A DNA stretch of 64,000 bases from Escherichia coli (GTDB lineage: Bacteria > Pseudomonadota > Gammaproteobacteria > Enterobacterales > Enterobacteriaceae), in assembly GCF_001677475.2 (NCBI RefSeq), contig NZ_CP015229.1. One strand, given 5' to 3'. Below are positions 1 to 30,179 of the stretch, piece after piece. The notes beneath the pieces were generated by a model. It did no database searches and was not told where the DNA came from. It worked only from the letters and a program-made list of their open reading frames with translations. A program made the position numbers and the translations under genes. Each line of letters opens with the position of its first letter. The stretch's first letter is position 1.

Positions 1-257
1 ATAGCATCAAAATAGCTGTAAACTCCATATGGAGAGTAAATCATTCTGGAAGTGAGTATAAATCCATTTACTGTGGTAAGAATATCATATAAGTCCTGAG
101 TTCTGTGTAGCTTATACACATTAATCAACTCCGGTCGTGGGTAAGCATCATATCTTAATGCACCATGCGCTGAGATAATATTCCTGTAATTTTGTATATT
201 ATATATAATCTGAGTACGTAGAAGAAAACTGTGCCACAATTCATTTTCATATATCAT
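1..257 (-). CDS. Hypothetical protein, N-terminal 85 codons only (continues past window start); first gene downstream of tnsD, candidate cargo or extra targeting gene
   Basis: ATG at 257 preceded by GAGG 5 nt upstream; frame stays open to position 1 (MIYENELWHSFLLRTQIIYNIQNYRN...); AT-rich; no recognisable similarity. Confidence 0.35.
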   Translation of the reverse strand, partial: MIYENELWHSFLLRTQIIYNIQNYRNIISAHGALRYDAYPRPELINVYKLHRTQDLYDILTTVNGFILTSRMIYSPYGVYSYFDA

Positions 258-272
258 ATCAACCTCATTCAA

Positions 273-1826
273 CTACTTAGATTTACTCATATTAATCAAA
301 GCCATAGTAACTGGAAGCTTATCTCTGTTTTTTAATAACCAGCCATGTCCCCCCAGTACAGAATCAAGTCTTGACAGTGACAGTGAGCACTGCCCCTGAG
401 CTAAAAAATTTTTTATTAATGATAATGAAAACTTATCCCTTTCATCCCAATTGACCCTTTTAACATTACAGCGCCGTGATTCCTTTGGTAAATAAAAATC
501 AAGCCATTGGCTTTCAAATCTGTTTAGCCAGAAAAAACTTGCATAACAATTCGCCCTGACTACTTTTCGAGTCACAGGACCAGTGAGGCCATGCATGAAC
601 CGCAGGATTTTTTGTTTATGACGTCGTCTTAAAGAGTCTCTTTTACATTTTTTACGCCATGAACATAATCCATAAAATGAAGAAATCACCGATGAAACAC
701 TCCCTTCCGATAAGGAGTTTTTCTTTGCTATTGATGCTAAACTAAACCCTCTCACAGCCATGGATTTAATAAGGAACTCAGTTAATATGTTTATTTTAAT
801 GCTACACTTATAATTCTTTACATACTTTTTATGGATTACTCCTTTAATAAAACATCTACTCTTGTTAAGTTCCTTAGCAAGAGAATTAATACTGTTATGT
901 TTTTCACTCAGGAGGCAAAACTGGGCTGTATCATCATCAAAAGCGATGCTCTTTGATTTTTTATGGATATCGGCATGTACTGGCCATGTTATTCTTAACA
1001 AACAATAGCACAGTAACAGATGCTTTGTTGGATGCTGGCATGATTGATTCCTGAGTAAAGGCTCCCAGTAGTGATAATCCGAAATGGATTCAGGCAAAAT
1101 TGCTGAAGAACCCGAATCTAATAACCTACATTTCGCATAAACATGTGAATAAAAAACCCCTTTTTTTATATTTCCTGATACTGATAATAAATTAAGTTGT
1201 TTCAGTATATCCATGTAATCAGGATGATTTGCATCTCCCCTTCGGATCATATTTATAAATTCGTAGCAAAATTTAGCAAAATCGAATTCAAACTCAGTAC
1301 TCAGATGTTCAATATATGAAACCGGGGGCATCAGCCCTTTGCGAATATGTGGCGAAGGAGGAACACAGATGCTTTCAAGTAATATCTGATGTCGATAGCA
1401 GGTCGTAATCCCCCGAAGTTGATGAAGAAGATGCCAGTATGTAACACCATGATGGTACGCATCTTCACGTGCACAAACCGGACAAAATTTTAAAACAGTC
1501 TGTAGCCCGGAGGAGAAATTACTAAGACGGCACAACCGATTTAGTCTGCCCGGTGTCGTTCTCAAATCCATAATTTCTTTGCGGCTGGATGGCAGGGCCC
1601 AGGAAAAAAGAGGGAGCAATGTCTGTTCATACAAGAGTTGCTCTGCACTCTCTGACGTATGAAGAGAAATATCGTTTAATCCGGAACTGAGTATTGGGTG
1701 TACGCTAACATCAGATTTTCCAAAAAGGATTTGTAACATGGTAGAAGGAGACATACCATACACAGTAACTGACCGACATATACGGCTAAACAAGGTTTCA
1801 TCAGGTAAAACAGGAAGTAGAATCAT
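273..1826 (-). CDS. tnsD: Tn7-like target-site selector TnsD/TniQ
   Basis: N-terminus aligns with Tn7 TnsD; CxxC...C..H zinc-finger-like segment (FCPVCAREDAYHHGVTYWH...CYRH). ATG at 1826 has a GAGGTGGG RBS; the ORF-track start at 1844 is a TTG. Confidence 0.8.
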   Translation of the reverse strand: MILLPVLPDETLFSRICRSVTVYGMSPSTMLQILFGKSDVSVHPILSSGLNDISLHTSESAEQLLYEQTLLPLFSWALPSSRKEIMDLRTTPGRLNRLCRLSNFSSGLQTVLKFCPVCAREDAYHHGVTYWHLLHQLRGITTCYRHQILLESICVPPSPHIRKGLMPPVSYIEHLSTEFEFDFAKFCYEFINMIRRGDANHPDYMDILKQLNLLSVSGNIKKGVFYSHVYAKCRLLDSGSSAILPESISDYHYWEPLLRNQSCQHPTKHLLLCYCLLRITWPVHADIHKKSKSIAFDDDTAQFCLLSEKHNSINSLAKELNKSRCFIKGVIHKKYVKNYKCSIKINILTEFLIKSMAVRGFSLASIAKKNSLSEGSVSSVISSFYGLCSWRKKCKRDSLRRRHKQKILRFMHGLTGPVTRKVVRANCYASFFWLNRFESQWLDFYLPKESRRCNVKRVNWDERDKFSLSLIKNFLAQGQCSLSLSRLDSVLGGHGWLLKNRDKLPVTMALINMSKSK

Positions 1827-1868
1827 TCGCCCACCTCTCAGCAACCACTCTGAACAATAAATTCAGTA

Positions 1869-3314
1869 TTACAATTCATTAAGTGGGTCTGTATTTAACA
1901 GACCGCAACGCTGAAGCGATGAGTAGGTTTCGTTGTTATCAGCAGCCCTGCTGATAATACGCTCCCGATCGAAAGATATGATTTTACTTTCGAAATTTTG
2001 CATAGCCTCATCAATTTTTTGTGCAAATTCTTTATGCTGTGGCCTGTCAATATCTCCAGGAATCAGAGCCTTCGCGTGCCTGTCGGCAGTAAAATCCGTT
2101 GAGGCTTCGCCTGCATGAGATACAGAGCAATATTTATCATCATACTCACCCACAGCTCCAGGTATCAAAGCCTCCTGATACTCCTCCGTATGACTGGCGA
2201 GCACCGGTACAGAAGACGACAACACTACACTACTGATCAGTTCATTGCCGCTTCCAATAACTTTTAATTGTGCCCTGCGATAAATCATCTGAGCCAGTCC
2301 GATGTTACCTTTAGATAAAACGAAAAGTTTTTCATTAAGCTCATCACTTAACGGAGTTTCAATATTTGTCCATTGTAATGGCCATAAATAATGAATAAAC
2401 GACTGCCAGTCCTGTGAGTCATACCTGACATTGAGAATATTCATATAACCACCCGATTCCGCTCGTCTGGCAATACGCATTTTTCTGGCCAGTGTTTCAT
2501 CAAAAGGGGGGTTTCCACAAAAAACCATTGATACACCCATTGAATCTACAATTTCATGAAGAAAATCAATGAGTTTATTTTCACCGCCCGTTCTGGAAAA
2601 TTTCAGCCGCTGCATTTCATCAATAACAAGAATACCCAAAAACGATGATTTAATTCTCTGCGCTATCTGCCTCGCCAGAGGACCATTCCTGATCTCTGAT
2701 GTAGTTCGTTCGATGCCGCTAGCATCATCTAACTTTAGAAGAATTTCTTCGCAAAGGTCTCTGACACTGGAGTTGTACGGACAATTAATCTTTAACCACA
2801 CGATTTGCTTGCTTAGCCCGGGAAAAGCACCTTTATAACTACTGTGCTCAATGACCTGGGGAAAGTAGTCCATAATTTGCTCAATCATGGTGGTTTTTCC
2901 GGAGCCACTCATCCCGACTATCGTAATAGTTTCAGCCTGAGACTTAAAATACCCGCTATCTGGCTCTATGTCAGGTCGCTCGTTACCATAGTAATGCAGG
3001 TACTGAACAGTACCACTTTTTAAAGGATTTCGGGCAGCATAACTTTCCCTCAAAGCCCGGTAAATCATTCTGTAAGCTTCGATAAGATTCGTTTGTGGAC
3101 ATCGAAATTTCTTTATCCGATCGACATACTGCTCCCTGATTTTAGCAGGAGCAGTCCAGCGAATATCTTCGTCAATTTCAGGAAAGTAACTCATTTCAAA
3201 AAACACTTCATCATCGGAAAGCGCTTCAGGAAGTGCCTCAATTAAGGGATTGCCCCGATATTCAGGCAAGCCCGGCTCTTTATAAATTGCTGAGACGCTC
3301 CGTAACATATTCAT
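1869..3314 (-). CDS. tnsC: Tn7-like transposition regulator TnsC (AAA+ ATPase)
   Basis: Walker A GMSGSGKTT; blocks matching Tn7 TnsC (YRGNPLIEALPE; LGILVIDEMQRL..SRTGG); ATGA overlap with tnsB stop. Confidence 0.9.
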   Translation of the reverse strand: MNMLRSVSAIYKEPGLPEYRGNPLIEALPEALSDDEVFFEMSYFPEIDEDIRWTAPAKIREQYVDRIKKFRCPQTNLIEAYRMIYRALRESYAARNPLKSGTVQYLHYYGNERPDIEPDSGYFKSQAETITIVGMSGSGKTTMIEQIMDYFPQVIEHSSYKGAFPGLSKQIVWLKINCPYNSSVRDLCEEILLKLDDASGIERTTSEIRNGPLARQIAQRIKSSFLGILVIDEMQRLKFSRTGGENKLIDFLHEIVDSMGVSMVFCGNPPFDETLARKMRIARRAESGGYMNILNVRYDSQDWQSFIHYLWPLQWTNIETPLSDELNEKLFVLSKGNIGLAQMIYRRAQLKVIGSGNELISSVVLSSSVPVLASHTEEYQEALIPGAVGEYDDKYCSVSHAGEASTDFTADRHAKALIPGDIDRPQHKEFAQKIDEAMQNFESKIISFDRERIISRAADNNETYSSLQRCGLLNTDPLNEL

Positions 3315-5437
3315 TTTTCTGCGTCCTCTTGTTTTTTCTTAGCGTTTAACCATCGCTGTTTTTCTTCACGGCCAGGCAAAAGCAGAATATTACTGGATGA
3401 AGGAAGTACAGGTTCATTTTTTTCATTAGGCAGATTTGTACGCCCTAATAGGTCCAGTTCAGCTTTTCTGTTCCGCCTGATATCTTTACCATGCACCCGG
3501 CGGGGATCAGAAATATCGTTCAGGCGTTCAATACCTTGCCTGTTGATTTTATCCTTAACTTTACTATTGTTAAAAACATTCAGTGTGAATGCATTTATTT
3601 CTTTTTGCGTATCTACCCAGTCGGCCATAACATCTGTATCAAGATGAGCTTTACCTTTAAATACATCTCTTTTTTTGAGTAGATAATGCTTTCTGAAGAC
3701 ACTATTTTTATCGAATCTTACGTACAAATAATCTACGCAATTATCATCAATTCTTGCTTCACAGGAGGTTCGTCCGAATACTCTTGCTGCTGAAGCAATG
3801 TCAGGATCGCATTCATAAAATAAATTATTATACTGAATTCCACCGGCTGTAATATTTGCTGTCACGGGGATTAACAAACGAGCAATGACTTCATCTGCTG
3901 TAACGACTCTTCCGCTGAACCGTCCTTGCTTTACGCTAATCATCCAGCTGTTTTTTGGCGAAATAATGAGATCATGTTCAATCAACAATGGATTAATATA
4001 AGCCAACTCCTCATACGTTCTTTGATTATGTGCAAGGATTTCCCGAATCAGCACTGAGGTGACCTCCTGAATCGTTAAACAGGCTCTGGATTGCGGTGTT
4101 GGTTCTCCTTTAACAATTTTGCCTCTTCGCGTTGCTCCTGTAAGCTCATGAATAGCTTCATCATTTAAAATCCCGAAACAACGCTCAACAATACTCTTTC
4201 TGTCCCCTCTGCCAACCGGTGCAAACTCAAGTTTAGTCAGAGGAGTCATCTTATCTTGAGGTTTAAGACCAATCATCTCTCCATTATCGCACATAAGTGT
4301 TAATGGTATATGAGAACAAGGCCATTCATCTTCATTAATAGAAACACCAAATATTCTACAGTATTCTTTTTTTGGCATAAAGCAATTTGCCAACGCTTGC
4401 CGGGCCGCTCGCCAGGAAGCATGATACAAAGAAACATGAAGACCAACAATCATCCTTGAAGCACGATCCACTACTGTATAAATAGTTGGTCGGCCAATAA
4501 CTTTACGCCTGTTTAAGCTTGAAACAAGGTGCACATCAGCTACAGTTGAGTCTATTTCAAAAACATCACCCGGCAATACGGTCGTATTAGCGGCACTCCC
4601 CAGAAGGCCACGCATCTTGAGGGCTATTTCTTTTTTAGAGTTTTTCTTATTTATAGAGAACTCTTTTGAAAACAACTTTCTATTCCAGTAAGTAAATTGT
4701 TTTAAAGAAGGAATGTAGGGAGCCCTGTTTTCAGCGTTTGCTTTCTTTATTTCATCCTTGAAATATAATTCAATGTGTCTTACCAGCGTTTTCTTTATCG
4801 TTTCCCCATGAGTTTTGTAATGAAACCTAGTTAGGGACTTTTTGATGTTTTCAATATCCCCTTCATTAAGGATATAAACTTTCGAACGTATATTGGGTAA
4901 TACTCTGTTTTTCTTTGCATTCCCGAGCTTAACTTCATGTCTGATTCTACTCTTACCTGCAGCACCGCAGTTCGGGTATGCGGGTAGCAAAGCATATATA
5001 TCCTGTCCATGTTTCCAGTAAAGAGTTAGAAGCGTCCTGATTGTACGTTGTGGGATTTGTTTTTTTCTGGAGTACTCTGTTAACAAATGTGATTTTTTAT
5101 GAATCGCATAATCAAATACGAATATTTTATCCTCTACAAGTTCTTTAATAATCTTATAGTTTACATCCCGTCGCTTTCTGTCTTCATTATTTATTTTTCT
5201 CTCATCAATCAACATATATGATGGGGGTGTATATTTCTTATGGGTTATTCTTTGCGAGTCCACACCATATGTAAATTGTGAAAGTGAGAATGGAATTGGT
5301 TTACTCGTTCTTTCTTTTTTTATTTCAAATAAAATCAACAAATCGGTATCTCTGTCAAAATCCAGAACGCGATAAAGCCCATCAGATAGCACGTCACTGT
5401 CGTGAGATTGCCATACTGAATTTCTAATAATATCCAT
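3311..5437 (-). CDS. tnsB: Tn7-like transposase TnsB (DDE/RNase H-fold)
   Basis: 708 aa; core similar to Tn7 TnsB (IGRPTIYTVVDRASRMIVG vs IGRPTLYIVIDVFSRMITG); overlaps tnsA 3' end by 14 nt. Confidence 0.9.
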   Translation of the reverse strand: MDIIRNSVWQSHDSDVLSDGLYRVLDFDRDTDLLILFEIKKERTSKPIPFSLSQFTYGVDSQRITHKKYTPPSYMLIDERKINNEDRKRRDVNYKIIKELVEDKIFVFDYAIHKKSHLLTEYSRKKQIPQRTIRTLLTLYWKHGQDIYALLPAYPNCGAAGKSRIRHEVKLGNAKKNRVLPNIRSKVYILNEGDIENIKKSLTRFHYKTHGETIKKTLVRHIELYFKDEIKKANAENRAPYIPSLKQFTYWNRKLFSKEFSINKKNSKKEIALKMRGLLGSAANTTVLPGDVFEIDSTVADVHLVSSLNRRKVIGRPTIYTVVDRASRMIVGLHVSLYHASWRAARQALANCFMPKKEYCRIFGVSINEDEWPCSHIPLTLMCDNGEMIGLKPQDKMTPLTKLEFAPVGRGDRKSIVERCFGILNDEAIHELTGATRRGKIVKGEPTPQSRACLTIQEVTSVLIREILAHNQRTYEELAYINPLLIEHDLIISPKNSWMISVKQGRFSGRVVTADEVIARLLIPVTANITAGGIQYNNLFYECDPDIASAARVFGRTSCEARIDDNCVDYLYVRFDKNSVFRKHYLLKKRDVFKGKAHLDTDVMADWVDTQKEINAFTLNVFNNSKVKDKINRQGIERLNDISDPRRVHGKDIRRNRKAELDLLGRTNLPNEKNEPVLPSSSNILLLPGREEKQRWLNAKKKQEDAEK

Positions 5438-6266
5438 TTGCGTTCAGCCCTATGCAGTAACCATTGGAAATTATTTTTATCAGACCTGTTTCGAGAATTG
5501 GATAAGATAGATCCACATTTATCATTTTTAACCCAATAATTGCCTGCAATAACATGATTGCTTCTTGTTCATCGACATCAAAGATTGATGAGATCATCGC
5601 GCGTAGTTCCACAATCGGATAAACATCCGGCTTAAGCCTCCATAAAATTTTATCAAGCGGATATTTATCAAAAAACTCAGACCCATTTCTCAGCACCGAG
5701 GTAGCCCAACATATGTTCTGCCCCGTGACATGATTCAGTTCCGAACCAGTATAGATTTGGAACTCAACATCAATCAGTTGCCAAAACATTCTCTCTATCT
5801 CAAGCTTTTCTGCTTCGCGTTTAGGTATGCTTTCGTTTTGCTTTACTGCAATTGCTTTATACCGAAGCCCCCCTCCCGGCATTCTCAGGGTCAGCAAGAA
5901 ATCAGTTGTCATAACATTCAGGACATCGGCTGGTACGCCTCTGACTCCCCTGACAAGCGGGTGCTGCACATCTAAGTGATTGGCTATCTGATGGGTGAGC
6001 AGTAGAGGTATGAGTGGGAATTGTTCGCGGATATCGATCACCAAGTCATTAAACTCAGCCAAGTAGAAAAAGTTACTTTCGACAGAAGAAAAGAAATGGT
6101 GATTCCGAAACGTCTTAAGGCCAAAGACTATCGAACGGTTTCCATGGGATCTAACGTCCTGAGCTCTAAGCCAGGGTTGATAACTTTGCCCATAGCCCAA
6201 CCCTATGCCGTCACCTAGCGCATTTTCATAATCCTGATAGGATTTAAGACGCCTGCCCCTAGCCAT
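5424..6266 (-). CDS. tnsA: Tn7-like transposase subunit TnsA (endonuclease-like)
   Basis: Matches Tn7 TnsA (YQPWLRAQDV...IDIREQFPLIP; KLEIERMFWQ). ATG at 6266 gives the same N-terminal length as Tn7 TnsA; the ORF-track start at 6278 is a GTG. Confidence 0.9.
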   Translation of the reverse strand: MARGRRLKSYQDYENALGDGIGLGYGQSYQPWLRAQDVRSHGNRSIVFGLKTFRNHHFFSSVESNFFYLAEFNDLVIDIREQFPLIPLLLTHQIANHLDVQHPLVRGVRGVPADVLNVMTTDFLLTLRMPGGGLRYKAIAVKQNESIPKREAEKLEIERMFWQLIDVEFQIYTGSELNHVTGQNICWATSVLRNGSEFFDKYPLDKILWRLKPDVYPIVELRAMISSIFDVDEQEAIMLLQAIIGLKMINVDLSYPILETGLIKIISNGYCIGLNANGYY

Positions 6267-6278
6267 GATCGTACCCAC

Positions 6279-6405
6279 AAAACATCATTGATACGTACCT
6301 GCATGAGTGTTTAATAGTCTACAACCCTATAACCACACATATAGTAAGTATACAACATTAGCGTCATTTTTTGAGAGTGGTTACAACTTTAGTGCTTAGG
6401 GCACA
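6279..6405 (-). repeat. Transposon right end: array of imperfect ~20-30 bp direct repeats carrying GTTGT(A) cores (putative TnsB-binding sites), terminus TGT at 6405 or 6385
   Basis: Minus-strand reading from the yhiN stop: AAAGTTGTGCC..AAAGTTGTAACC..AATGTTGTATAC..GGGTTGTAGAC..TTTTGTGGG; analogous to the Tn7-R site organisation. Confidence 0.55.
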
Positions 6406-6408
6406 ACT

Positions 6409-7611
6409 TTATTGTTTTTGAACAGCAATCAAATCCTGCGCACAAGCCCACGCACTCGACCACGCCCACTGGAAATTATAGCCCCCCAGCCAACCGGTGA
6501 CGTCCATCACTTCGCCGATGAAGTACAGCCCAGGCACTTTGCGCGCTTCCATCGTCCGTGAAGAGAGTTCGTTGGTGTCCACGCCGCCGAGCGTCACTTC
6601 GGCAGTGCGATAGCCTTCAGTGCCGTTGGGTTGTACGCGCCAGTCGGTCAATGTGCTAATCAGTGCCTGTTGGTCACGCACGTTGAGCTGTTTTAGCGAG
6701 ACATCCGGGATTTGCCCGAGTTGTTGTAAACGTTCAACCAACCGCTTCGGTAGATGAACCGCCAGTGTGTTTTTCAGGCTCTGATTCGGATGTGCATTAC
6801 GCTGCTCATTCAGGAAGGTTTCGAGGTCCACATCAGGTAGCAGATTGATACTGACAAATTCACCCGGTTGCCAGTAGCTGGAAATTTGCAACACCGCCGG
6901 TCCAGATAAACCGCGGTGGGTGAAGAGTAAGTTCTCACGGAAAACGGTGCCGTTTTCAGCGGTAATCACGGAAGGCACCGCCACGCCCGCCAGCACCTGT
7001 AACTCTTCGAGCAACGGTTTATGCAGAGTGAATGGCACCAGGCCCGCGCGGGTCGGCAGCACGTTGAGGCCAAATTGTTCGGCAATCTTATAACCAAACG
7101 GCGACGCGCCCAGCCCTGGCATTGACAGTCCACCGGTCGCGATGACCAGCTTTTCGCAACCGACAGTCATGCCGTTCAGTTCAAGCGTGAAGCCTGTTTC
7201 ATCCTTCGCCACACTCAGCACTTCGCTACGCAATCTGAAGGTCACATTGCCCTTCTCGCACTCATCCACCAGCATGTCGACAATCTGCTGCGCGGAGTCA
7301 TCGCAGAAGAGTTGTCCTAACGTTTTCTCGTGCCAGGCGATGCCGTGTTTATTGACCAGATCAATGAAATCCCACTGGGTAAAACGCGCGAGTGCAGATT
7401 TACAAAAATGCGGATTCTGGCTCAGATAAGCGCCCGGTTCGACATAAAGGTTGGTAAAGTTGCAGCGCCCACCGCCAGACATGAGGATTTTGCGCCCTGG
7501 TTTTTTACCATTATCGATCAGCAGAACCCGGCGTCCTGCCTGACCTGCCAGCGCAGAACAGAACATACCCGCCGCACCAGCGCCTATAATAATGGCATCA
7601 AACCTTTCCAC
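6409..7611 (-). CDS. yhiN: NAD(FAD)-utilising dehydrogenase YhiN (flavoprotein, HI0933 family)
   Basis: 400 aa, MERFDAIIIGAGAAG... dinucleotide-binding motif; GTG start with GGAG RBS. Confidence 0.9.
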   Translation of the reverse strand: MERFDAIIIGAGAAGMFCSALAGQAGRRVLLIDNGKKPGRKILMSGGGRCNFTNLYVEPGAYLSQNPHFCKSALARFTQWDFIDLVNKHGIAWHEKTLGQLFCDDSAQQIVDMLVDECEKGNVTFRLRSEVLSVAKDETGFTLELNGMTVGCEKLVIATGGLSMPGLGASPFGYKIAEQFGLNVLPTRAGLVPFTLHKPLLEELQVLAGVAVPSVITAENGTVFRENLLFTHRGLSGPAVLQISSYWQPGEFVSINLLPDVDLETFLNEQRNAHPNQSLKNTLAVHLPKRLVERLQQLGQIPDVSLKQLNVRDQQALISTLTDWRVQPNGTEGYRTAEVTLGGVDTNELSSRTMEARKVPGLYFIGEVMDVTGWLGGYNFQWAWSSAWACAQDLIAVQKQ

Positions 7612-7842
7612 GTTGCGCTCCTCTAAGAAAAAACGGGCGTGAATTGTAAAGATTCCTCAGTGGTCGCACCAGCATCAATATTACTAAAAGGAAGTATTTG
7701 CCTGAATTATATAAGATAATTATTTTTTGAGTGAAATCCATACAGGAGGCAAATCAAAAAAAGTCTATATTTCACTTTGCCCGCGCCGCGAAAGTCACTG
7801 ATAATGCGCCGCGTTCATGTCCTCAAAATGGCGTAACGTCCT

Positions 7843-9342
7843 ATGCTACATTTGTTTGCTGGCCTGGATTTGCATACCGGGCTGTTATTATTGCTTGCAC
7901 TGGCTTTTGTGCTGTTCTACGAAGCCATCAATGGTTTCCATGACACAGCCAACGCCGTGGCAACCGTTATCTATACCCGCGCGATGCGTTCTCAGCTCGC
8001 CGTGGTTATGGCGGCGGTGTTCAACTTTTTGGGTGTTTTGCTGGGTGGTCTGAGTGTTGCCTATGCCATTGTGCATATGCTGCCGACGGATCTGCTGCTT
8101 AATATGGGATCGTCTCATGGCCTTGCCATGGTGTTCTCTATGTTGCTGGCGGCGATTATCTGGAACCTGGGTACCTGGTACTTTGGTTTACCTGCATCCA
8201 GCTCTCATACGCTGATTGGCGCGATCATCGGGATTGGTTTAACCAATGCGTTGATGACCGGGACGTCAGTGGTGGATGCACTCAATATCCCGAAAGTATT
8301 AAGTATTTTCGGTTCTCTGATCGTTTCCCCTATTGTCGGCCTGGTGTTTGCTGGCGGTCTGATTTTCTTGCTGCGTCGCTACTGGAGCGGCACCAAGAAA
8401 CGCGCCCGTATCCACCTGACCCCAGCGGAGCGTGAAAAGAAAGACGGCAAGAAAAAGCCGCCGTTCTGGACGCGTATTGCGCTGATCCTTTCCGCTATCG
8501 GCGTGGCGTTTTCGCACGGCGCAAACGATGGTCAGAAAGGCATTGGTCTGGTTATGTTGGTATTGATTGGCGTCGCACCAGCAGGCTTCGTGGTGAACAT
8601 GAATGCCACTGGCTACGAAATCACCCGTACCCGTGATGCCATCAACAACGTGGAAGCTTACTTTGAGCAGCACCCTGCGCTGCTGAAACAGGCTACCGGT
8701 GCTGATCAGTTAGTACCGGCTCCGGAAGCTGGCGCAACGCAACCTGCGGAGTTCCATTGCCATCCGTCGAATACCATTAACGCGCTCAACCGCCTGAAAG
8801 GCATGTTGACTACCGATGTGGAAAGCTACGACAAGCTGTCGCTTGATCAACGTAGCCAGATGCGCCGCATTATGCTGTGCGTTTCTGACACTATCGACAA
8901 AGTGGTGAAGATGCCTGGCGTGAGTGCAGACGATCAGCGCCTGTTGAAGAAACTGAAGTCCGACATGCTTAGCACCATCGAGTATGCGCCGGTGTGGATC
9001 ATCATGGCGGTCGCGCTGGCGTTAGGTATCGGTACGATGATTGGCTGGCGTCGTGTGGCAACGACTATCGGTGAGAAAATCGGTAAGAAAGGCATGACCT
9101 ACGCTCAGGGGATGTCTGCCCAGATGACGGCGGCAGTGTCCATCGGCCTGGCGAGTTATACCGGGATGCCGGTTTCCACCACTCACGTACTCTCCTCTTC
9201 TGTCGCGGGGACGATGGTGGTAGATGGCGGCGGCTTACAGCGTAAAACCGTGACCAGTATTCTGATGGCCTGGGTGTTTACCCTTCCGGCTGCGGTACTG
9301 CTTTCCGGCGGGCTGTACTGGCTCTCCTTGCAGTTCCTGTAA
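7843..9342 (+). CDS. pitA: Low-affinity inorganic phosphate transporter PitA
   Basis: 499 aa, [18 protein letters not shown]..., PiT family. Confidence 0.95.
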
Positions 9343-9358
9343 TCGTACGCACCAAAAC

Positions 9359-9388
9359 AGCGGGTCAGTTTACTGGCCCGCTTTTTTT
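9359..9388 (+). terminator. Rho-independent terminator after pitA
   Basis: GC stem GCGGGTCAG-TTTA-CTGGCCCGC followed by T7. Confidence 0.55.
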
Positions 9389-9411
9389 ATGCGTCATTAT
9401 TGCTGAAGTGC

Positions 9412-9747
9412 TTAATGCCAAATCATCAATGCAATCAGGCTGATCACCACCAGACCACACAATGCGCTGGTCAGAATAAACTGCCGACGCACCCGCTCAC
9501 AGCGGCGAATAAACTCATCATCGTGATGATCGCGATAACGTTGGGCATAGATATACCAAACGAGACGCACCTGTTTGTTGGGTTGGCCATGTGAGGTAAA
9601 AAAGCCCCCTCCATCAACATATTGATAGAGCAATGGATCGCAGTTACGCAGTACCACTAACAACGCGCGTAGTGATGAGAAATAGCGCGCCATGTTAACA
9701 ATGCAAACGACACATAAAGCCCAAAATAATGCGACGGTGCTTATCAT
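9412..9747 (-). CDS. uspB: Universal stress protein B
   Basis: 111 aa membrane protein, [14 protein letters not shown]...; GGAGGA RBS. Confidence 0.95.
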
Positions 9748-10137
9748 ACCTCCTCCCCGGCGACCTGCCCGCGGAGTTCCACCCCGGGGCTACCGCTCCC
9801 GATACGCTGCCAATCAGTTAACACCAGGTCCTGGAGAAACCGCTTTTGTGGTGACCAACATCCGAGCGGCTCTATAGATAGTGTAGGAGATCAGGTTGTT
9901 TTTTTTCCAGAAGGTTAACCACTATCAATATATTCATGTCGAAAATTTGTTTATCTAACGAGTAAGCAAGGCGGATTGACGGATCATCCGGGTCGCTATA
10001 AGGTAAGGATGGTCTTAACACTGAATCTTTACGGCTGGGTTAGCCCCGCGCACGTAGTTCGCAGGACGCGGGTGACGTAACGGCACAAGAAACGCTAGCT
10101 GGCCAGTCATCGACAACTTTATGGAAGGAGTAACACT

Positions 10138-10572
10138 ATGGCTTATAAACACATTCTCATCGCGGTCGACCTCTCCCCGGAAAGCAAAGTTCTGGTAGAG
10201 AAAGCAGTCTCTATGGCTCGCCCCTACAATGCGAAAGTTTCTCTGATCCACGTAGATGTAAACTACTCTGACCTATACACCGGGCTTATTGATGTGAATC
10301 TGGGTGATATGCAGAAACGCATCTCTGAAGAGACACATCATGCGCTGACCGAGCTTTCCACTAATGCAGGCTACCCAATCACTGAAACCCTGAGCGGCAG
10401 CGGCGACCTGGGCCAGGTTCTGGTCGATGCAATCAAGAAATACGATATGGATTTGGTGGTTTGTGGTCACCACCAGGACTTCTGGAGCAAACTGATGTCT
10501 TCCGCACGTCAGCTGATCAACACCGTTCACGTTGATATGCTGATTGTTCCGCTGCGCGACGAAGAAGAATAA
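10138..10572 (+). CDS. uspA: Universal stress protein A
   Basis: 144 aa, [19 protein letters not shown]...; GGAAGGAG RBS. Confidence 0.95.
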
Positions 10573-10598
10573 TCTTCCCTCTACGACGTGTTCCTGAA

Positions 10599-10627
10599 CG
10601 CCCGCATATGCGGGCGTTTTGCTTTTT
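10599..10627 (+). terminator. Rho-independent terminator after uspA
   Basis: CGCCCGCATATGCGGGCG hairpin followed by a T-rich tract. Confidence 0.55.
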
Positions 10628-10887
10628 GGCGCGCCTTGTTACCTTGCAGCGTAAACACCTTATCTGGCCTACGGTCTGCGTACGCAATCAAAATCCCCTG
10701 CCAATACAACATTTAACACCATCATATTTTCCATCATTAGTGTGATCAGCTGGTTATTTTCTGTTGTAATAGTGTATTAATCTATTCACCGCATCAATAT
10801 TAAGAATCTCTGACAGATGTAAACTTTTTCGCGCGTTATCCCTTACGCGTTCATACTTTTCAGGATGGTATTGGAAGGTTAATAAAT

Positions 10888-12357
10888 ATGAATACAACAA
10901 CACCCATGGGGATGCTGCAGCAACCTCGCCCATTTTTCATGATCTTTTTTGTCGAGTTATGGGAGCGATTCGGCTACTACGGCGTGCAGGGCGTACTGGC
11001 GGTTTTCTTCGTTAAGCAGCTTGGATTCTCGCAAGAACAGGCTTTTGTCACTTTTGGTGCTTTTGCTGCGCTGGTCTATGGCCTCATTTCCATTGGCGGC
11101 TATGTCGGCGACCACCTGCTGGGGACCAAACGCACCATTGTCCTCGGAGCACTTGTGCTGGCGATTGGCTACTTCATGACCGGTCTGTCGCTACTTAAGC
11201 CTGACCTGATTTTCATCGCCCTGGGGACTATCGCTGTCGGTAACGGCCTGTTTAAAGCTAACCCAGCCAGCTTGCTTTCGAAGTGCTATCCGCCGAAAGA
11301 TCCACGGCTTGATGGCGCATTTACCCTGTTCTATATGTCGATCAACATCGGCTCGTTGATAGCGTTATCGCTGGCCCCTGTGATCGCTGATAGATTCGGC
11401 TATTCAGTCACCTACAACCTGTGCGGTGCGGGATTAATTATCGCGCTATTGGTTTACATCGCCTGTCGCGGAATGGTGAAAGACATTGGTTCTGAACCCG
11501 ACTTCCGGCCGATGAGCTTCAGCAAACTGTTGTACGTGTTACTTGGCAGCGTGGTGATGATCTTCGTCTGTGCATGGCTGATGCACAACGTAGAAGTCGC
11601 CAATCTGGTGCTGATTGTTCTCTCCATCGTCGTCACCATCATCTTCTTTCGTCAGGCATTCAAGCTGGATAAAACCGGGCGCAATAAAATGTTTGTCGCC
11701 TTTGTCCTGATGCTCGAAGCGGTGGTGTTTTACATTCTCTACGCCCAGATGCCAACGTCGCTGAACTTCTTTGCCATCAACAACGTGCATCATGAAATTC
11801 TCGGCTTTTCCATCAACCCGGTCAGCTTCCAGGCGCTTAACCCGTTCTGGGTAGTACTCGCCAGCCCAGTACTGGCAGGCATTTACACGCATCTGGGTAA
11901 CAAAGGCAAAGACCTCTCTATGCCGATGAAATTTACTCTCGGCATGTTTATGTGCTCGCTGGGCTTTCTTACAGCCGCCGCTGCGGGAATGTGGTTTGCG
12001 GATGCCCAGGGGCTGACATCGCCGTGGTTTATTGTGCTGGTTTACTTATTCCAGAGCCTGGGTGAACTGTTTATTAGCGCCCTTGGCCTGGCGATGATTG
12101 CTGCCCTGGTGCCGCAGCATTTGATGGGCTTTATTCTCGGGATGTGGTTCCTGACGCAGGCTGCCGCGTTCTTGCTGGGCGGCTATGTGGCAACATTTAC
12201 CGCAGTACCAGACAACATTACCGATCCGCTTGAGACGTTGCCCGTCTATACCAACGTGTTTGGTAAGATTGGCCTGGTTACGCTGGGCGTTGCGGTGGTG
12301 ATGCTGCTGATGGTGCCGTGGCTGAAACGAATGATTGCGACGCCCGAAAGCCATTAA
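10888..12357 (+). CDS. dtpB: Dipeptide/tripeptide:H+ symporter DtpB (POT family)
   Basis: 489 aa; ERFGYYG POT signature near the N-terminus. Confidence 0.95.
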
Positions 12358-12371
12358 TTATTCTTGCAGAA

Positions 12372-12400
12372 AGCAGGGTAGCGATAACGCTACCCTGCTT
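12372..12400. terminator. Hairpin between convergent dtpB and rsmJ (likely bidirectional terminator)
   Basis: AAGCAGGGTAGCG-ATAA-CGCTACCCTGCTT palindrome, T-rich on the + side. Confidence 0.5.
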
Positions 12401-12405
12401 TACTT

Positions 12406-13158
12406 TTACACCGGCGTTCCGGCATAAATATCAAAGCGATGCCCTTTGGTCACTACCGCGTTTGGCGTGGCGACATTCGCCAGCGGCGGCGCGTAGTCCG
12501 GGCGCTTTACCACCACGCGTTTGGTCGCCAGCAAGCGTGCAGGCTCCAGTAATCCATCGGCATCAAGATCCGGCCCCACCAGCGACTGAAAGACACGCAT
12601 CTCTTTTTTCACCAGCGCGCTTTTCTGCTTATGCGGGAACATCGGATCGAGATAGACCACCTGCGGGCGCGGAGTAATATCGGTTAGCGCCGTCAGGCTG
12701 GAAGCGTGAATTAACTGCAACCGCTCCTGCAACCAGCCGCCGATTTCCGCATCCGCATAACCACGCGCCAGGCCGTCGTCGAGCAATGCAGCAACCACCG
12801 GATTACGCTCCAGCATCCGCACGCGGCAGCCGACCGAAGCCAGCACAAAGGCATCGCGCCCCAGCCCTGCGGTGGCATCGACGACATCCGGCAAATAATC
12901 GCCTTTAATGCCCACCGCTTTTGCCACCGCCTCACCGCGACCACCGCCGAATTTGCGTCGGTGCGCCATCGCTCCGCCAACAAAATCAACAAAGATGCCA
13001 CCAAGTTTTGGCTCATCACGCTTGCGCAGTTCCAGATGCTCCGGTGTTAACACCAGCGCCATCAGGTTGTCTTCATCATGTTCCAGCCCCCAGCGAGCCG
13101 CCAGAACAGATAAGGCACCGTCTCCGGTGCCTGTTTCATCAATTAAGCAGATTTTCAC
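12406..13158 (-). CDS. rsmJ: 16S rRNA m2G1516 methyltransferase RsmJ
   Basis: 250 aa from GTG ([14 protein letters not shown]...); starts 8 nt after the prlC stop. Confidence 0.9.
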
Positions 13159-13165
13159 TGAATGA

Positions 13166-15208
13166 TCAGCCCTTAATGCCGTAATGCTCCAGCATCGCAT
13201 CCAGTTGCGGTTCACGACCACGGAAGCGTTTGAACAGATCCATCGGCTCTTCTGAACCACCACGGCTCAGAATGTTGTCGAGGAACGACTGTCCAGTATC
13301 ACGGTTGAAAATGCCCTCTTCCTCAAAGCGCGAGAAGGCATCTGCCGCCAGCACGTCGGCCCACAGGTAGCTGTAGTAACCTGCGGCATAACCACCGGCG
13401 AAAATATGGCTGAAAGCGTGCGGGAAGCGGCCCCAGGATGGAGACGGTACTACGGCAACCAGTTTCTTGATTTCTGCCAGGGTTTCGAGGATTTTCGCCC
13501 CCTGATCCGGGCGGAACTCGGCATGGAGGCGGAAATCGAACAGGCCGAACTCCAGCTGGCGCAGAATAAACAGCGCCGCCTGGTAGTTCTTCGCTGCCAG
13601 CATTTTATCCAGCAGCTCTTTCGGCAGCGGTTCGCCGGTTTCATAGTGACCGGAGATAAACGCCAGCGCCTCCGGCTCCCAGCACCAGTTTTCCATAAAC
13701 TGACTCGGCAGTTCGACCGCATCCCACGGCACCCCGCTGATACCAGACACACCAGCGGTTTCAATGCGGGTCAGCATATGATGCAGGCCGTGACCGAACT
13801 CATGGAACAGAGTGATCACCTCGTCGTGAGTGAACAGCGCCGGTTTACCATTCACCGGGCGGTTGAAGTTACAGGTCAGATACGCGACCGGTTTTTGCAG
13901 CGAACCGTCGGCTTTACGCATCTGGCCTACGCAGTCATCCATCCACGCCCCGCCGCGCTTGTTTTCACGGGCATACAGGTCGAGGTAGAAGCTGCCGCGC
14001 AGTTCGTTGTTCTCGTCATACAGTTCGAAGAAACGTACATCCGGATGCCAGACATCAACATCTTTACGCTCTTTAGCGGTGATGCCGTAAATACGTTTCA
14101 CCACTTCAAACAAGCCGTTAACCGCTTTGTTTTCCGGGAAGTACGGACGCAGTTGTTCGTCACTGATGCTGTAGAGGTGCTGTTTTTGTTTTTCGCTGTA
14201 GTACGCGATATCCCACGGCTGCAACTCATCCACGCCAAATTCGGCTTTAGCGAAGGCACGCAGTTGCGCCAGCTCTTTTTCACCTTGCGGACGCGCGCGT
14301 TTTGCCAGATCGGTTAAGAAATCCAGCACCTGCTGCGGATTTTCTGCCATTTTAGTGGCAAGGGATTTAAAGGCGTAGTTTTCAAAGCCCAGCAGTTGCG
14401 CCAGTTCGTGACGCAGCGCGAGGATCTCTTCCATCACCTTGCTGTTGTCCCACTTACCGGCGTTCGGACCTTGATCGGAGGCGCGGGTGCTGTAAGCGCG
14501 ATACATCTCTTCGCGCAGAGCCTGGTTGTCGCAGTAGGTCATTACCGGCAGGTAGCTTGGGATATCCAGCGTCAGCAGGTAGCCTTCAAGTTCTTTCGCT
14601 TCAGCCTGGGCTTTTGCCGCAGCCAGCGCGCTTTCTGGCATCCCCGCCAGTTCCGCTTCGTCGGTAACGAGTTTGGTCCAGCCCATTGTCGCATCGAGGA
14701 CGTTGTTGCTGTACTGGTTGCCCAGCTCGGAAAGACGAGTGGCAATCTCACCGTAACGCTGCTGTTTCTCTTTCGGCAGACCGATGCCAGAGAGTTCAAA
14801 GTCGCGCAGTGCGTTATCAACCGCTTTCTTCTGCGCCGTGTTCAGCGTGGCGTAATGATCGCCATCGCGCAGGTCGCGATACGCTTTATACAGCCCTTCA
14901 TGTTGCCCTACCCAGGTGCTGTATTCCGACAGCAGCGGCAGGGTTTGTTCGTAGGCTTCACGCAGTTCCGGGCTATTTTTCACCGAGTTCAGGTGGCTGA
15001 CCGGGGAGAAGATACGCCCCAGCACATCGTCCACTTCCGCCAGCGGCTGGCAGAGATTTTCCCAGGTGTACGGTGCTCCTTGCGCTACTACGCGCTCCAC
15101 ATTTTCGCGGCAGTCGTTCAGCGCCTTAGTCACGGCTGGAACGACATGTTCCGGGAGAATTTTAGAAAACGGAGGCAATTCAAAGGGAGTCAGTAACGGA
15201 TTCGTCAT
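13166..15208 (-). CDS. prlC: Oligopeptidase A (M3 family Zn metallopeptidase)
   Basis: 680 aa from [17 protein letters not shown]; HEFGH zinc motif present. Confidence 0.95.
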
Positions 15209-15410
15209 TAGCGCAGTCCTGGTTAAAGAGGTTAAGGAAGCGCTCAACAGGCGCTTTACATAATGTGTGTAGCATGGGGTTAAGTGTAGTGAATTTCAAT
15301 GAGAAACGTTACGCTTTCGCGGCGGCGGCCTCTTTTCGGTATACTGTCCTGATAGGCTTTTGTGCGCCCCGAATACGGGCCGATTTTTACTTACCGGAAC
15401 ACCTTTACCC

Positions 15411-16253
15411 ATGCTCAGTTATCGCCACAGCTTTCACGCTGGCAACCACGCCGACGTCCTTAAACATACCGTTCAGAGCCTGATCATCGAGTCGCTGAAA
15501 GAGAAAGATAAACCGTTTCTCTATCTCGATACCCACGCAGGGGCCGGGCGTTATCAGTTAGGCAGCGAACATGCCGAGCGTACCGGCGAATATCTCGAAG
15601 GTATCGCCCGTATCTGGCAGCAGGACGATTTGCCTGCGGAGCTGGAGGCGTACATCAATGTGGTAAAACACTTCAACCGTAGCGGTCAGTTGCGTTACTA
15701 CCCCGGTTCACCGTTGATTGCCCGTCAGTTACTGCGTGAACAGGACAGCCTGCAACTGACCGAACTGCACCCGAGCGATTACCCGTTGCTACGTTCTGAA
15801 TTTCAGAAAGACAGCCGTGCGCGCGTCGAAAAATCCGACGGTTTCCAGCAGCTTAAGGCCAAACTGCCGCCGGTTTCCCGCCGTGGTTTAATACTTATCG
15901 ACCCGCCGTATGAAATGAAAACCGACTATCAGGCGGTGGTCAGCGGGATAGCAGAAGGCTATAAACGTTTCGCCACTGGCACTTACGCACTGTGGTATCC
16001 GGTGGTTCTGCGCCAGCAAATTAAGCGCATGATCCACGACCTGGAAGCGACCGGCATTCGCAAAATTCTGCAAATTGAACTGGCGGTACTGCCAGACAGC
16101 GATCGCCGTGGCATGACCGCTTCCGGCATGATTGTGATTAATCCGCCGTGGAAGCTGGAACAGCAGATGAATAACGTGCTGCCGTGGCTGCACAGCAAAC
16201 TGGTTCCGGCTGGTACCGGGCACGCCACCGTAAGCTGGATCGTGCCGGAGTAA
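15411..16253 (+). CDS. rlmJ: 23S rRNA m6A2030 methyltransferase RlmJ
   Basis: 280 aa from MLSYRHSFHAGNHADVLKH. Confidence 0.9.
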   Translation: MLSYRHSFHAGNHADVLKHTVQSLIIESLKEKDKPFLYLDTHAGAGRYQLGSEHAERTGEYLEGIARIWQQDDLPAELEAYINVVKHFNRSGQLRYYPGSPLIARQLLREQDSLQLTELHPSDYPLLRSEFQKDSRARVEKSDGFQQLKAKLPPVSRRGLILIDPPYEMKTDYQAVVSGIAEGYKRFATGTYALWYPVVLRQQIKRMIHDLEATGIRKILQIELAVLPDSDRRGMTASGMIVINPPWKLEQQMNNVLPWLHSKLVPAGTGHATVSWIVPE

Positions 16254-16324
16254 TTGCAGCCATTGCTGGCACCTATTACGTCTCGCGCTACAATCGCGGT
16301 AATCAACGATAAGGACACTCTGTC

Positions 16325-17677
16325 ATGACTAAACACTATGATTACATCGCCATCGGCGGCGGCAGCGGCGGTATCGCCTCCATCAACCGCGCGGCTATGT
16401 ACGGCCAGAAATGTGCGCTGATTGAAGCCAAAGAACTGGGCGGCACCTGCGTGAACGTCGGCTGCGTACCGAAGAAAGTGATGTGGCACGCGGCGCAAAT
16501 CCGTGAAGCGATCCACATGTACGGTCCGGATTATGGTTTCGATACCACTATCAATAAATTCAACTGGGAAACGTTGATCGCCAGCCGTACCGCCTATATC
16601 GACCGTATTCATACTTCCTATGAAAACGTGCTCGGTAAAAATAACGTTGATGTAATCAAAGGCTTTGCCCGCTTCGTTGATGCCAAAACGCTGGAAGTTA
16701 ACGGTGAAACCATCACGGCCGATCATATTCTGATCGCCACCGGCGGTCGTCCGAGCCACCCGGATATTCCAGGCGTGGAATACGGTATTGATTCTGATGG
16801 CTTCTTCGCCCTTCCTGCTTTGCCAGAGCGCGTAGCAGTTGTTGGCGCGGGTTACATCGCCGTTGAACTGGCGGGCGTGATTAACGGCCTCGGCGCGAAA
16901 ACGCATCTGTTTGTGCGTAAACATGCGCCGCTGCGCAGCTTCGACCCGATGATCTCTGAAACGCTGGTCGAAGTGATGAACGCCGAAGGCCCACAGTTAC
17001 ATACCAACGCCATCCCGAAAGCGGTAGTGAAAAATGCCGATGGCAGCCTGACGCTGGAGCTGGAAGATGGTCGCAGTGAAACGGTGGATTGCCTGATTTG
17101 GGCGATTGGTCGCGAGCCTGCCAATGACAACATCAACCTGGAAGCCGCTGGCGTTAAAACTAACGAAAAAGGCTATATCGTCGTCGATAAATATCAAAAT
17201 ACCAACGTTGAAGGTATCTACGCGGTGGGCGATAACACGGGGGCAGTGGAACTGACACCGGTAGCAGTTGCAGCGGGTCGCCGTCTCTCTGAACGCCTGT
17301 TTAATAACAAGCCGGATGAGCATCTGGATTACAGCAACATTCCGACCGTGGTCTTCAGCCATCCGCCGATTGGGACTGTTGGTTTAACGGAACCGCAGGC
17401 GCGCGAGCAGTACGGCGACGATCAGGTGAAAGTGTATAAATCCTCTTTCACCGCGATGTATACCGCAGTCACCACTCACCGCCAGCCGTGCCGCATGAAA
17501 CTGGTATGCGTTGGACCGGAAGAGAAGATTGTCGGAATTCACGGCATTGGTTTTGGTATGGATGAAATGTTGCAGGGCTTCGCGGTGGCGCTGAAGATGG
17601 GGGCGACCAAAAAAGACTTCGACAATACCGTCGCCATTCACCCGACGGCGGCAGAAGAGTTCGTGACCATGCGTTAA
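16325..17677 (+). CDS. gor: Glutathione reductase
   Basis: 450 aa; GGGSGG FAD motif; redox-active [13 protein letters not shown]. Confidence 0.95.
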
Positions 17678-25443: not shown

Positions 25444-25503
25444 ACGATTGATCAATATAAAGAGGCCCAGCAATAAATAGCCAGACCTCCCGTTAATTAT
25501 ACG

Positions 25504-26532: not shown

Positions 26533-26580
26533 TGTCTCTCTTCCTTCCAGATAAATGCCCCGAAATATCGGGGCAGATGA

Positions 26581-28563: not shown

Positions 28564-28852
28564 AGCGATTCTCCATGAGGAAAATAAAAAATGCTGGCTG
28601 CCTGGGTTAATACCGGGGTGGCTGGCGAAAAATAAATTTATTTAAAATTCAGAGCGATAATATTCGCCGGGTGAATTTACAGGCGTTTATATCCCATGAA
28701 ATTGCCTGGTATCTCGGCAAATACGCAAAAGCACGCCCTCTTTGTCAGGCAAAACGATATGCCCCATCAGGAGTGAAGAGCGCTGTGCGTTATCCCTTGC
28801 AAATGCTATGGTTTTGTTATCCATATGGTCGTGATTTGTTAAGCTCAAACAT

Positions 28853-28871
28853 GATAATGAGAATTATTATC
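28853..28871. promoter_or_regulatory. Fur box in the chuA / chuT divergent promoter region
   Basis: GATAATGAGAATTATTATC vs consensus GATAATGATAATCATTATC. Confidence 0.5.
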
Positions 28872-29202: not shown

Positions 29203-29223
29203 TGATAATCATGATCATTCTCA
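29203..29223. promoter_or_regulatory. Fur-box-like site upstream of chuT
   Basis: TGATAATCATGATCATTCTCA about 25 nt upstream of the chuT ATG. Confidence 0.45.
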
Positions 29224-29245
29224 ATTTGATAAGAGTTCTCATATT

Positions 29246-30160: not shown

Positions 30161-30179
30161 ATGGATTTAAATCAGACGA

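Follow-up and report, generated by a model that had tools for sequence, protein, structure and literature searches.

The first 6,424 positions of the window (the whole stretch of Escherichia coli DNA analysed, 64,000 nucleotides) are the right end of a Tn7-like transposon with tnsA, tnsB, tnsC and tnsD all on the minus strand, and with a probability of about 0.9 they form the right-hand 22% of a cut-and-paste element of ~29.6 kb, which belongs to the Tn6230 family and has the 3' end of yhiN as its fixed attachment site. The yhiN gene is listed as the attachment site of the Tn6230 family (PMC11406308, Table 1), and the yhiN site is E. coli defence-island hotspot #3 (PMC10121019). A preliminary description had placed a Tn7-like transposon at the yhiN 3' end, with its right end next to the target and tnsABCD reading inward, and this was borne out both by homology to the Tn7 proteins and by comparison with E. 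coli K-12. The description had also placed any undescribed system in the cargo; what was found is a type II CBASS and a tibDBCA locus, both of known kinds, in a transposon family that is already published (PMC11406308, PMC10121019). The element is real but ordinary and holds no new kind of system, and annotation of the region as a Tn6230-family transposon is now secure, with exact boundaries, an attachment site, a five-gene rather than a four-gene module, and a rebuilt cargo.

Right end and transposition genes

The features of the right end and its target, in window coordinates, are:

1..257, minus strand: short TniQ-family protein, 308 aa, of which the first 85 codons are in the window; fifth gene of the module
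273..1826, minus strand: tnsD, long TniQ/TnsD target selector, 517 aa (alternative TTG start at 1844)
1869..3314, minus strand: tnsC, AAA+ regulator, 481 aa
3311..5437, minus strand: tnsB, DDE transposase, 708 aa
5424..6266, minus strand: tnsA, endonuclease subunit, 280 aa (the reading frame reaches a GTG at 6278)
6279..6424: right (tnsA-proximal) transposon end, tip ending in ACAACTTTATTGTTTTTGAACA, reading inward TGTTCAAAAACAATAAAGTTGT (sequence, motif scan and K-12 comparison)
6403-6424, 6383-6404, 6352-6373 and 6321-6342: four TnsB-type repeats (motif scan)
6279-6300: weak fifth TnsB-type repeat
6409..7611, minus strand: yhiN, the target gene, 400 codons (open reading frame list, TIGR00275 at 2e-128 and K-12 comparison)
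6425..6429: right copy of the 5-bp target-site duplication, GCAAT (single copy in K-12)
6453..6530, minus strand: predicted target-selector recognition site, a conserved yhiN coding block ending in GEVMDVTGWLGGYNFQWAWSS, its near edge 28-29 bp from the insertion point

Homology to K-12 breaks off exactly at the right-end tip, so that the element boundary is at position 6424, directly followed by the GCAAT duplication, and not at 6405 as first described. As the same description stated, K-12 has no tns gene between yhiN and yhiM, the spacer being 314 bp long. The direct repeats of the right end are spaced 31, 31 and 20 nt apart, and the GC fraction drops from ~0.54 in yhiN to 0.34-0.44 in the element. 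The second GCAAT copy, which the description had predicted together with a left end, was found with that end in sibling genomes (L001 and L034-L043, including L043, a sibling from the lineage of the window). With the left side read from these siblings, the element has inverted ends which are both tipped by TGT, multiple TnsB repeats and an intact 5-bp duplication. A scan of window positions 1-8000 against Rfam gave no RNA family, and the counts from a promoter and terminator scan did not exceed those in shuffled sequence.

All four Tns proteins are full-length homologues of Tn7 TnsA, TnsB, TnsC and TnsD in which the catalytic and zinc-finger residues are kept. The NCBIfam scan returned no family for TnsA, TnsB or TnsD and the Pfam scan no match for TnsB (no rve in Pfam-A), and identities were settled by aligning each protein to its solved Tn7 counterpart, which upheld the homologies proposed earlier at a level far above chance. 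TnsA matches Tn7 TnsA (1t0f, E 4e-30), and the alignment shows that the catalytic E, D and K are kept; the protein also matches Pfam Tn7_TnsA-like_N (PF08722, 1.4e-14). TnsB matches Tn7 TnsB (7pik, E 1.4e-46, residues 8-659), and its conserved D, D and E fall in the motifs EID, DNGE and IVE, which we take to be Tn7 D273, D361 and E396; a PF27135 HTH_TnsB domain is present in the precomputed annotation of the matching 708-aa gene on sibling contigs 99.99% identical in DNA to the window. TnsC matches Tn7 TnsC (7mbw, E 4e-39, residues 7-367), Pfam AAA_22 (2e-18) and TniB (4e-9), and its translation contains the Walker A motif GMSGSGKTT and the Walker B motif LVIDEMQ. TnsD, labelled in RefSeq as 'TnsD family Tn7-like transposition protein', has Pfam domains TniQ (5.3e-20, residues 10-156) and TnsD (PF15978, 4.9e-15, residues 361-516), and its CxxC...CxxH finger aligns with that of Tn7 TnsD (8glu, E 4e-5).

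The claim that these genes are translationally coupled holds for the first part of the module, where tnsA and tnsB overlap by 14 nt and tnsB and tnsC by 4 nt, but not for the remainder, where gaps of 42 nt (24 nt with the TTG start) separate tnsC from tnsD and of 15 nt tnsD from the fifth gene. This fifth gene had been taken for the start of an undescribed cargo system at position 257. Its product shows the TniQ fold, with a helical N-terminal domain and a zinc finger of the CCCH type; it shares 60% identity with its counterpart in the sil/pco element, and was found in all relatives examined. The gene is a short second TniQ which is part of a conserved five-gene transposition module, not cargo.

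Targeting of yhiN and the two TniQ-family proteins

The insertion lies within the last codons of the yhiN reading frame, at a point in E. coli four codons before the stop, so that the yhiN stop codon (6409-6411) is transposon DNA. The last four codons and the stop come from the transposon end, giving a C-terminus of VQKQ* versus AKSS* in K-12, and since a TAA in the terminal TnsB site (CAATAAAG) is in frame, the length of yhiN is kept at 400 codons.

Junctions were compared for two E. coli elements, V. cholerae, a Vibrio metagenome contig and Pseudovibrio, all occupied, together with the empty K-12 site. At every occupied junction (5/5) the element starts 29-32 nt past the conserved yhiN block. 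By analogy with TnsD at glmS, the block at 6453-6530 is the predicted binding site of the selector, and on the same analogy we would assign it to TnsD, and not to the short TniQ or a combination of the two. In the proposed mechanism, the long selector TnsD would recognise the block, which encodes GGYNFQWAWSS, and recruit the AAA+ protein TnsC; TnsC would then activate the heteromeric TnsA+TnsB transposase on the repeated end sites, and the element would insert in a single orientation, at a point 29-32 bp downstream from the block, duplicating 5 bp of the target (GCAAT in E. coli). The block thereby offers a concrete candidate binding site for Tn6230 targeting, which reviews leave uncharacterised.

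Alternatively, the short TniQ could recognise yhiN, alone or together with TnsD, which in the first case would serve another target. Both selector genes are kept in every yhiN-associated relative examined, so co-occurrence does not tell them apart; the molecular details of yhiN targeting are given as unknown in a review (PMC11406308), and there is a precedent in Tn6022, where TnsABC and TniQ are insufficient and a partner, TnsF, is needed for targeting comM (PMC11014353). On the other hand, the length of the short protein is close to that of the TniQ core, without any long extension, and this size has been linked to adaptor roles (Faure et al., PMC10293859). It is TnsD which bears the C-terminal TnsD domain PF15978. 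In Tn7 this domain contacts attTn7. We consider recognition of yhiN by the short TniQ unlikely, and recognition by TnsD the better reading.

If TnsD selects yhiN, the short TniQ would most likely provide a second targeting pathway or act as an adaptor. No cas genes or other obvious partners adjoin it. A 'TnsF' gene is mentioned in a Tn6230 element from Peters 2014 (PMC11014353), and we assume that this is the short TniQ. A tentative and somewhat doubtful possibility is that it acts as an independent second target selector in a TnsE-like role, directing the element to targets other than yhiN, such as conjugative plasmids, through a second cysteine cluster (C192, C288, C291 and C299) which is absent from characterised TniQ proteins. 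If true, this would account for the arrival of the sil/pco relative on IncHI2 plasmids and give molecular details which the field lacks for Tn6230. When the plasmid copies of the sil/pco form were checked for plasmid targeting, four IncHI2 copies (junction read in one) proved to share one backbone context; they therefore represent a single event and are not statistical evidence for a plasmid-targeting pathway.

Cargo, relatives and mobility

The cargo was read not from the window but from draft assemblies which are 99.99% identical to window positions 1-13314, flank included, and in these sibling assemblies the rebuilt element measures 29.6 kb. To the left of window position 1 we thus predict ~23.2 kb of further element, adjoining yhiM and ending, in the yhiN sense, in ACAACTTTATTGGTTCTACACA directly followed by ATTGC; on the plus strand of the window, the predicted left junction reads GCAAT directly followed by TGTGTAGAACC. 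The cargo comprises a type II CBASS, an orphan antitoxin-like gene, regulators, IS debris and the tibDBCA adhesin locus, all of which are known kinds. The suggestion that cargo lay to the left and might include defence genes was thereby confirmed, as the CBASS is present in the assemblies of this lineage. Its CD-NTase, Cap2 (E1/E2), Cap3 (JAB) and SAVED-nuclease effector are encoded in one operon (PADLOC: cyclase 1.5e-160, E1-E2 3.8e-241, JAB 6.4e-81, SAVED_PDDEXK 1.7e-195), with the effector gene split by a 1-bp insertion in assembly GCA_019135795.1. An earlier view of the cargo as a tib-only island, drawn from six complete genomes, was revised when assemblies with the backbone of the window turned out to carry an extra 8.4-kb segment with the CBASS; what the complete RefSeq genomes hold is only a derivative that is IS3-deleted and lacks the CBASS. 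A CBASS thus travels on the same site-specific transposon as tib, the adhesin/invasin locus of enterotoxigenic E. coli.

Two tyrosine recombinase/invertase genes lie close to the left end, and could have integrated the island with the tns genes as mere passengers. We regard this as extremely improbable, as the island is bounded not by att core repeats but by TGT ends of the Tn7 type, which carry TnsB-type repeats and are flanked by a 5-bp duplication, and the same site is occupied by relatives which have quite different cargo and no such recombinases. Moreover, RefSeq labels one of the two genes as a 'tyrosine-type DNA invertase'. Enzymes of this sort drive phase variation at adhesin loci.

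Relatives of the transposon were gathered via a protein database and exact-protein look-ups; a single-sequence TnsD scan of genome contigs found no relative. Two features of the Tn6230 subfamily are present, namely an attachment site at the yhiN 3' end with the right end facing yhiN, and tnsABCD with a conserved gene after tnsD. Tn6230 was reportedly named by Peters et al. in 2014. Its subfamily has been defined by the sil/cop region (PMC13049778), and since this metal-resistance region is absent from the cargo in the sibling assemblies, the element is a sibling lineage of the sil/pco Tn6230 and not Tn6230 itself. The sil/pco Tn6230 in E. coli NCTC11121 is inserted at the identical nucleotide. 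The duplication of Tn6230 was reported as GCTGC and its terminal repeat as TGTCCGAAGACAATAAAGTTGT (PMC13049778); an insertion 3 bp away from that of Tn6230, which the reported duplication would imply, was rejected, as the NCTC11121 sil/pco copy has the same junction and GCAAT. Among 5426 complete E. coli genomes the present element was found in 6 and the sil/pco form in 676, and distant relatives (34% TnsD identity) adjoin a yhiN homologue in V. cholerae, another Vibrio and the alphaproteobacterium Pseudovibrio.

From the sequence we infer that the element is probably active at present. It differs from that in strain JNEC-KY174 at 7 of 6424 bases, whereas divergence in the chromosome beside it is ~1% close to the junction and reaches 8% per kb further out, with the switch in identity starting within 51 bp of the junction; this change at the junction, with a near-identical element in a diverged backbone, argues for a recent independent arrival. 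The competing explanation is an immobilised relic, a fixed island passed on only by vertical inheritance or by homologous recombination in the flanks. The cargo is full of IS3, IS1 and IS256 fragments, the CBASS segment has disappeared from one derivative (L001) and the entire tns module from another (L027), and the sil/pco copy of NCTC11121 has TAT rather than TGT at its left tip, all as expected of a relic. The left end itself has two clear TnsB-type sites only, followed by an IS3 remnant 121 bp from the tip, which could lower activity. Against this, all five module genes are full length with lengths matching those in relatives, both tips are TGT with the duplication intact, the element is 99.9% identical in backbones which differ by 1-8% per kb, and the index of the assembly collection places the exact protein of the fifth gene in 2398 blocks. 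A relic is therefore an improbable reading, and we favour a mobile transposon.

Comparison with known systems

The element resembles Tn7, which inserts at attTn7 downstream of glmS, in its TnsA+TnsB heteromer, TnsC, TnsD with a CCCH finger and 5-bp duplication, in facing the target gene with its right end, and in inserting at a fixed distance from a conserved coding block. It differs in its target gene, in inserting within the last codons rather than past the stop, and in having a short second TniQ in place of TnsE; similarity between the TnsD proteins is modest, with a match in the N-terminal domain only (E 4e-5). A long TnsD (>400 aa) beside a short TniQ (~300 aa) is also the arrangement of the dual tniQ-tnsD Tn7-like transposons (Faure et al. 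2023), known from ~1000 loci (PMC10293859), although in the characterised CAST I-B, I-D and Tn7017 the short TniQ pairs with Cascade, whereas the present element has no cas neighbours. The V. cholerae yhiN elements (L006-L008) share the order yhiN homologue, tnsA, tnsB, tnsC, tnsD and a short TniQ-like gene, and likewise carry a type II CBASS (SMODS, ThiF, JAB, SAVED), but are inserted just past the yhiN stop, and their TnsD and short TniQ are only 34% and 18% identical to those described here.

The closest likeness is to Tn6230, a transposon for copper-silver resistance (sil/pco) whose prototype is on the IncHI2 plasmid R478 and which is common at yhiN in E. coli; it has the same five-gene module, gene order and attachment site. 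In E. coli the two share the insertion nucleotide and the GCAAT duplication, and both give yhiN an in-frame TAA. The Tn6230 terminal repeat matches the tnsA end of the element at 19/22 bases, the modules are 79% identical in DNA, and the proteins are identical at 87.5% (TnsA), 80% (TnsB), 80% (TnsC), 66% (TnsD) and 60% (short TniQ) of positions, while the cargo differs, being CBASS and tib in this element versus sil/pco in Tn6230.

The transposition module and its limits

Five co-directional genes on the minus strand occupy positions 1-6424 of the window and are followed by yhiN, also on the minus strand, and by pitA; the GC fraction of the five genes is 0.34-0.44, versus about 0.54 for yhiN. 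Profile and solved-structure comparisons identify all four complete genes as full-length homologues of Tn7 TnsA, TnsB, TnsC and TnsD, in agreement with the preliminary description.

Genes of the module and the target gene
6409-7611, minus strand: yhiN (ORF list)
5424-6266, minus strand: TnsA (Pfam PF08722, 1.4e-14; solved TnsA 1t0f, E 4e-30)
3311-5437, minus strand: TnsB (Tn7 TnsB 7pik, E 1.4e-46, residues 8-659)
1869-3314, minus strand: TnsC (AAA_22 and TniB matches; Tn7 TnsC, E 4e-39)
273-1826, minus strand: TnsD (N-terminal TniQ domain, 5e-20; C-terminal TnsD domain, 5e-15)

TnsA keeps the catalytic residues E, D and K in the alignment to 1t0f, the CCCH finger of TnsD aligns to Tn7 TnsD, and the DDE triad of TnsB aligns with 7pik, while TnsB had no matches in the Pfam and NCBIfam scans. 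The genes had been described as translationally coupled, which fits the tnsA/tnsB (14 nt) and tnsB/tnsC (4 nt) overlaps, but not the remaining junctions, which are short gaps.

Homology to K-12 picks up again at position 6425, and hence the element ends at 6424, 19 bp beyond the limit of 6405 first assigned to it. Its final bases (6403-6424) read ...ACAACTTTATTGTTTTTGAACA and are directly followed by GCAAT (6425-6429), with four TnsB-type repeats running inward from this right end (6403-6424, 6383-6404, 6352-6373 and 6321-6342). Over query 1-6498, which covers the tns module and 74 bp of adjacent flank, the JNEC-KY174 sequence is 99.9% identical to the window; the opposite end of its element, adjoining yhiM, reads GCAAT followed by TGTGTAGAACCAATAAAGTTGT. 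Since GCAAT is single-copy in K-12 and present at both element junctions, it represents the 5-bp target duplication; the left end and second GCAAT copy, which the preliminary description had proposed to look for, are seen next to yhiM in JNEC-KY174 as well as in loci of the window lineage. The target gene is indeed yhiN, but the insertion lies within the gene and not beside it, four codons upstream of the K-12 stop. YhiN still has 400 residues, because the transposon end supplies VQKQ and TAA in place of the AKSS and TGA of K-12.

Cargo of the element

The cargo predicted to lie off-window to the left is present in window-lineage assemblies, and includes a type II CBASS. In six complete genomes, with 98.7% identity to the window over 14 kb of chromosomal backbone, the element measures 22.5 kb and carries a tib locus (tibA adhesin/invasin, tibC heptosyltransferase, LuxR/CaiF regulators), an EAL protein, two tyrosine invertases and IS debris. 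Exact-protein look-ups also identified draft assemblies 99.99% identical to the window over 13.3 kb including flank, and joining two overlapping loci of this lineage gave a 29,623-bp element with left junction and GCAAT unchanged and 8.4 kb extra relative to the complete genomes. This segment contains an orphan Xre/ParS_C antitoxin-like gene, an IS256 remnant, a membrane protein of 218-223 aa and the CBASS, with Cap3, Cap2, CD-NTase and SAVED-endonuclease effector assigned by PADLOC; the tib-only form has lost it through an IS3-associated deletion.

Off-window cargo features in L026 (GCA_019135795.1, window lineage)
16297-16743 and 15100-16055: Xre-like/ParS_C antitoxin-type gene and IS256 fragments
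13749-14420, minus strand: predicted membrane protein, 218-223 aa, adjoining the CBASS Cap3 gene

The antitoxin-like gene has no toxin partner, and IS256 (Transposase_mut) fragments fill the expected toxin position. The membrane protein has no Pfam family in the precomputed annotation of the collection and no PADLOC match. At L026 9441, a 1-bp insertion relative to the comparison locus L022 divides the SAVED-endonuclease effector into ORFs of 338 and 191 aa, reflecting either genuine inactivation or an error in the assembly. In GCA_053209775.1 the CBASS and antitoxin-like cargo abuts yhiN, and tnsABCD and the short TniQ gene are missing; this is a fixed, tns-less remnant derived from the element.

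Among distant family members, those of V. cholerae (L006-L008) carry type II CBASS as defence-type cargo, and in those of Buttiauxella and a metagenome contig (L005, L033) a NERD/kinase/helicase protein (about 1600 aa) is paired with one of about 480 aa. ETEC H10407 (NC_017633.1) has the prototype tib locus, which shares only 91.5% identity with the tib cargo of this element, and its coordinate near 2.29 Mb, amid IS30/IS600, suggests a location other than yhiN.

The fifth gene and the attachment site

Cargo had been thought to start at position 257, but 257-1 is the start of a gene for a 308-aa protein common to relatives, which sequence comparisons identify as a divergent TniQ (Pfam TniQ, 1.6e-4; PADLOC TniQ, 3.7e-7). 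The gene comes after tnsD in the sil/pco element, Buttiauxella and two Vibrio lineages, and adjoins an inverted tnsD in the alphaproteobacterium Pseudovibrio. A profile search returned 339 cluster representatives, mostly of 300-400 aa, and 11/60 family members match Pfam TniQ (E<=0.001). Residues C111, C114, C137 and H140 are invariant in the family, and four further cysteines (C192, C288, C291, C299), invariant or nearly so, suggest a second metal site. The long TnsD next to a short TniQ is the 'dual tniQ-tnsD' arrangement known from about 1000 loci, where the short protein is thought to work via another selector or pathway (PMC10293859).

We aligned five occupied junctions (two E. coli elements, V. 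cholerae, a Vibrio metagenome contig and Pseudovibrio) with the K-12 site, which is empty. In every occupied junction the element starts 29-32 nt past a nearly invariant block coding for GGYNFQWAWSS (window about 6453-6530), proposed here, by analogy with TnsD at glmS, as a candidate binding site of the selector. The Vibrio and Pseudovibrio yhiN genes have their stop codon just ahead of the insertion point, and the E. coli insertion falls inside the gene because yhiN is four codons longer there.

Mobility and relation to Tn6230

The five genes of the module are intact, and TGT is present at both tips. The element differs from that of JNEC-KY174 at 7/6424 bases, whereas the adjoining chromosome, diverging from 51 bp beyond the junction, shows about 1% difference close to it and as much as 8% per kb farther out, a pattern that fits separate recent arrivals at one site. 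Elsewhere in the window, a 9-kb segment of the dctR-yhiD interval (25445-34501), missing in JNEC-KY174, carries genes for a TonB-dependent haem receptor, ChuW/HutW, HutX and a haem ABC transporter, and we take it to be the chu/shu haem-uptake island already known from non-A/B1 E. coli. At the left end of the element, an IS3 remnant 121 bp from the tip leaves two clear TnsB-type sites, making less than full activity plausible. This is a real and, from its sequence, apparently intact Tn7-like transposon, as was correctly recognised at first.

The family to which it belongs has already been described, and Tn6230 is listed with yhiN as its attachment site (PMC11406308). In a survey of E. coli defence islands, hotspot #3 is the yhiN/yhiM interval, with Tn6230 as its sole occupant (PMC10121019). 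The usual E. coli form is the sil/pco element, found in 676/5426 complete genomes with 78.6% DNA identity to the window, versus only 6 genomes of this set for the window's form. The sil/pco element also occurs outside yhiN, on IncHI2 plasmids (L028-L031), where homology stops exactly at the right tip; at the junction read in one of the four (L028 4079/4080) the flank is GGACACTATAAAACC..., unlike yhiN. Three of the plasmids have common downstream backbone genes, and in the fourth IS26 and resistance genes replace the flank. As the four inspected copies share one backbone site, they represent one non-att event and do not count as evidence for a second pathway.

The left end of the sil/pco element in E. 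coli NCTC11121 (L004 about 6838-6842) has the tip TATGTAG..., not TGT..., and both E. coli elements are flanked by GCAAT, versus the GCTGC duplication given for Tn6230-like elements (PMC13049778). Family, yhiN site and defence-cargo habit are already on record in the literature, and the cargo of this element consists of known kinds. The sil/pco form in NCTC11121 shares the insertion nucleotide and GCAAT with the window element; protein identities are 87.5% for TnsA, 80% for TnsB, 80% for TnsC, 66% for TnsD and 60% for the fifth gene. The window element belongs to a lineage that is sibling to Tn6230 rather than to Tn6230 proper.
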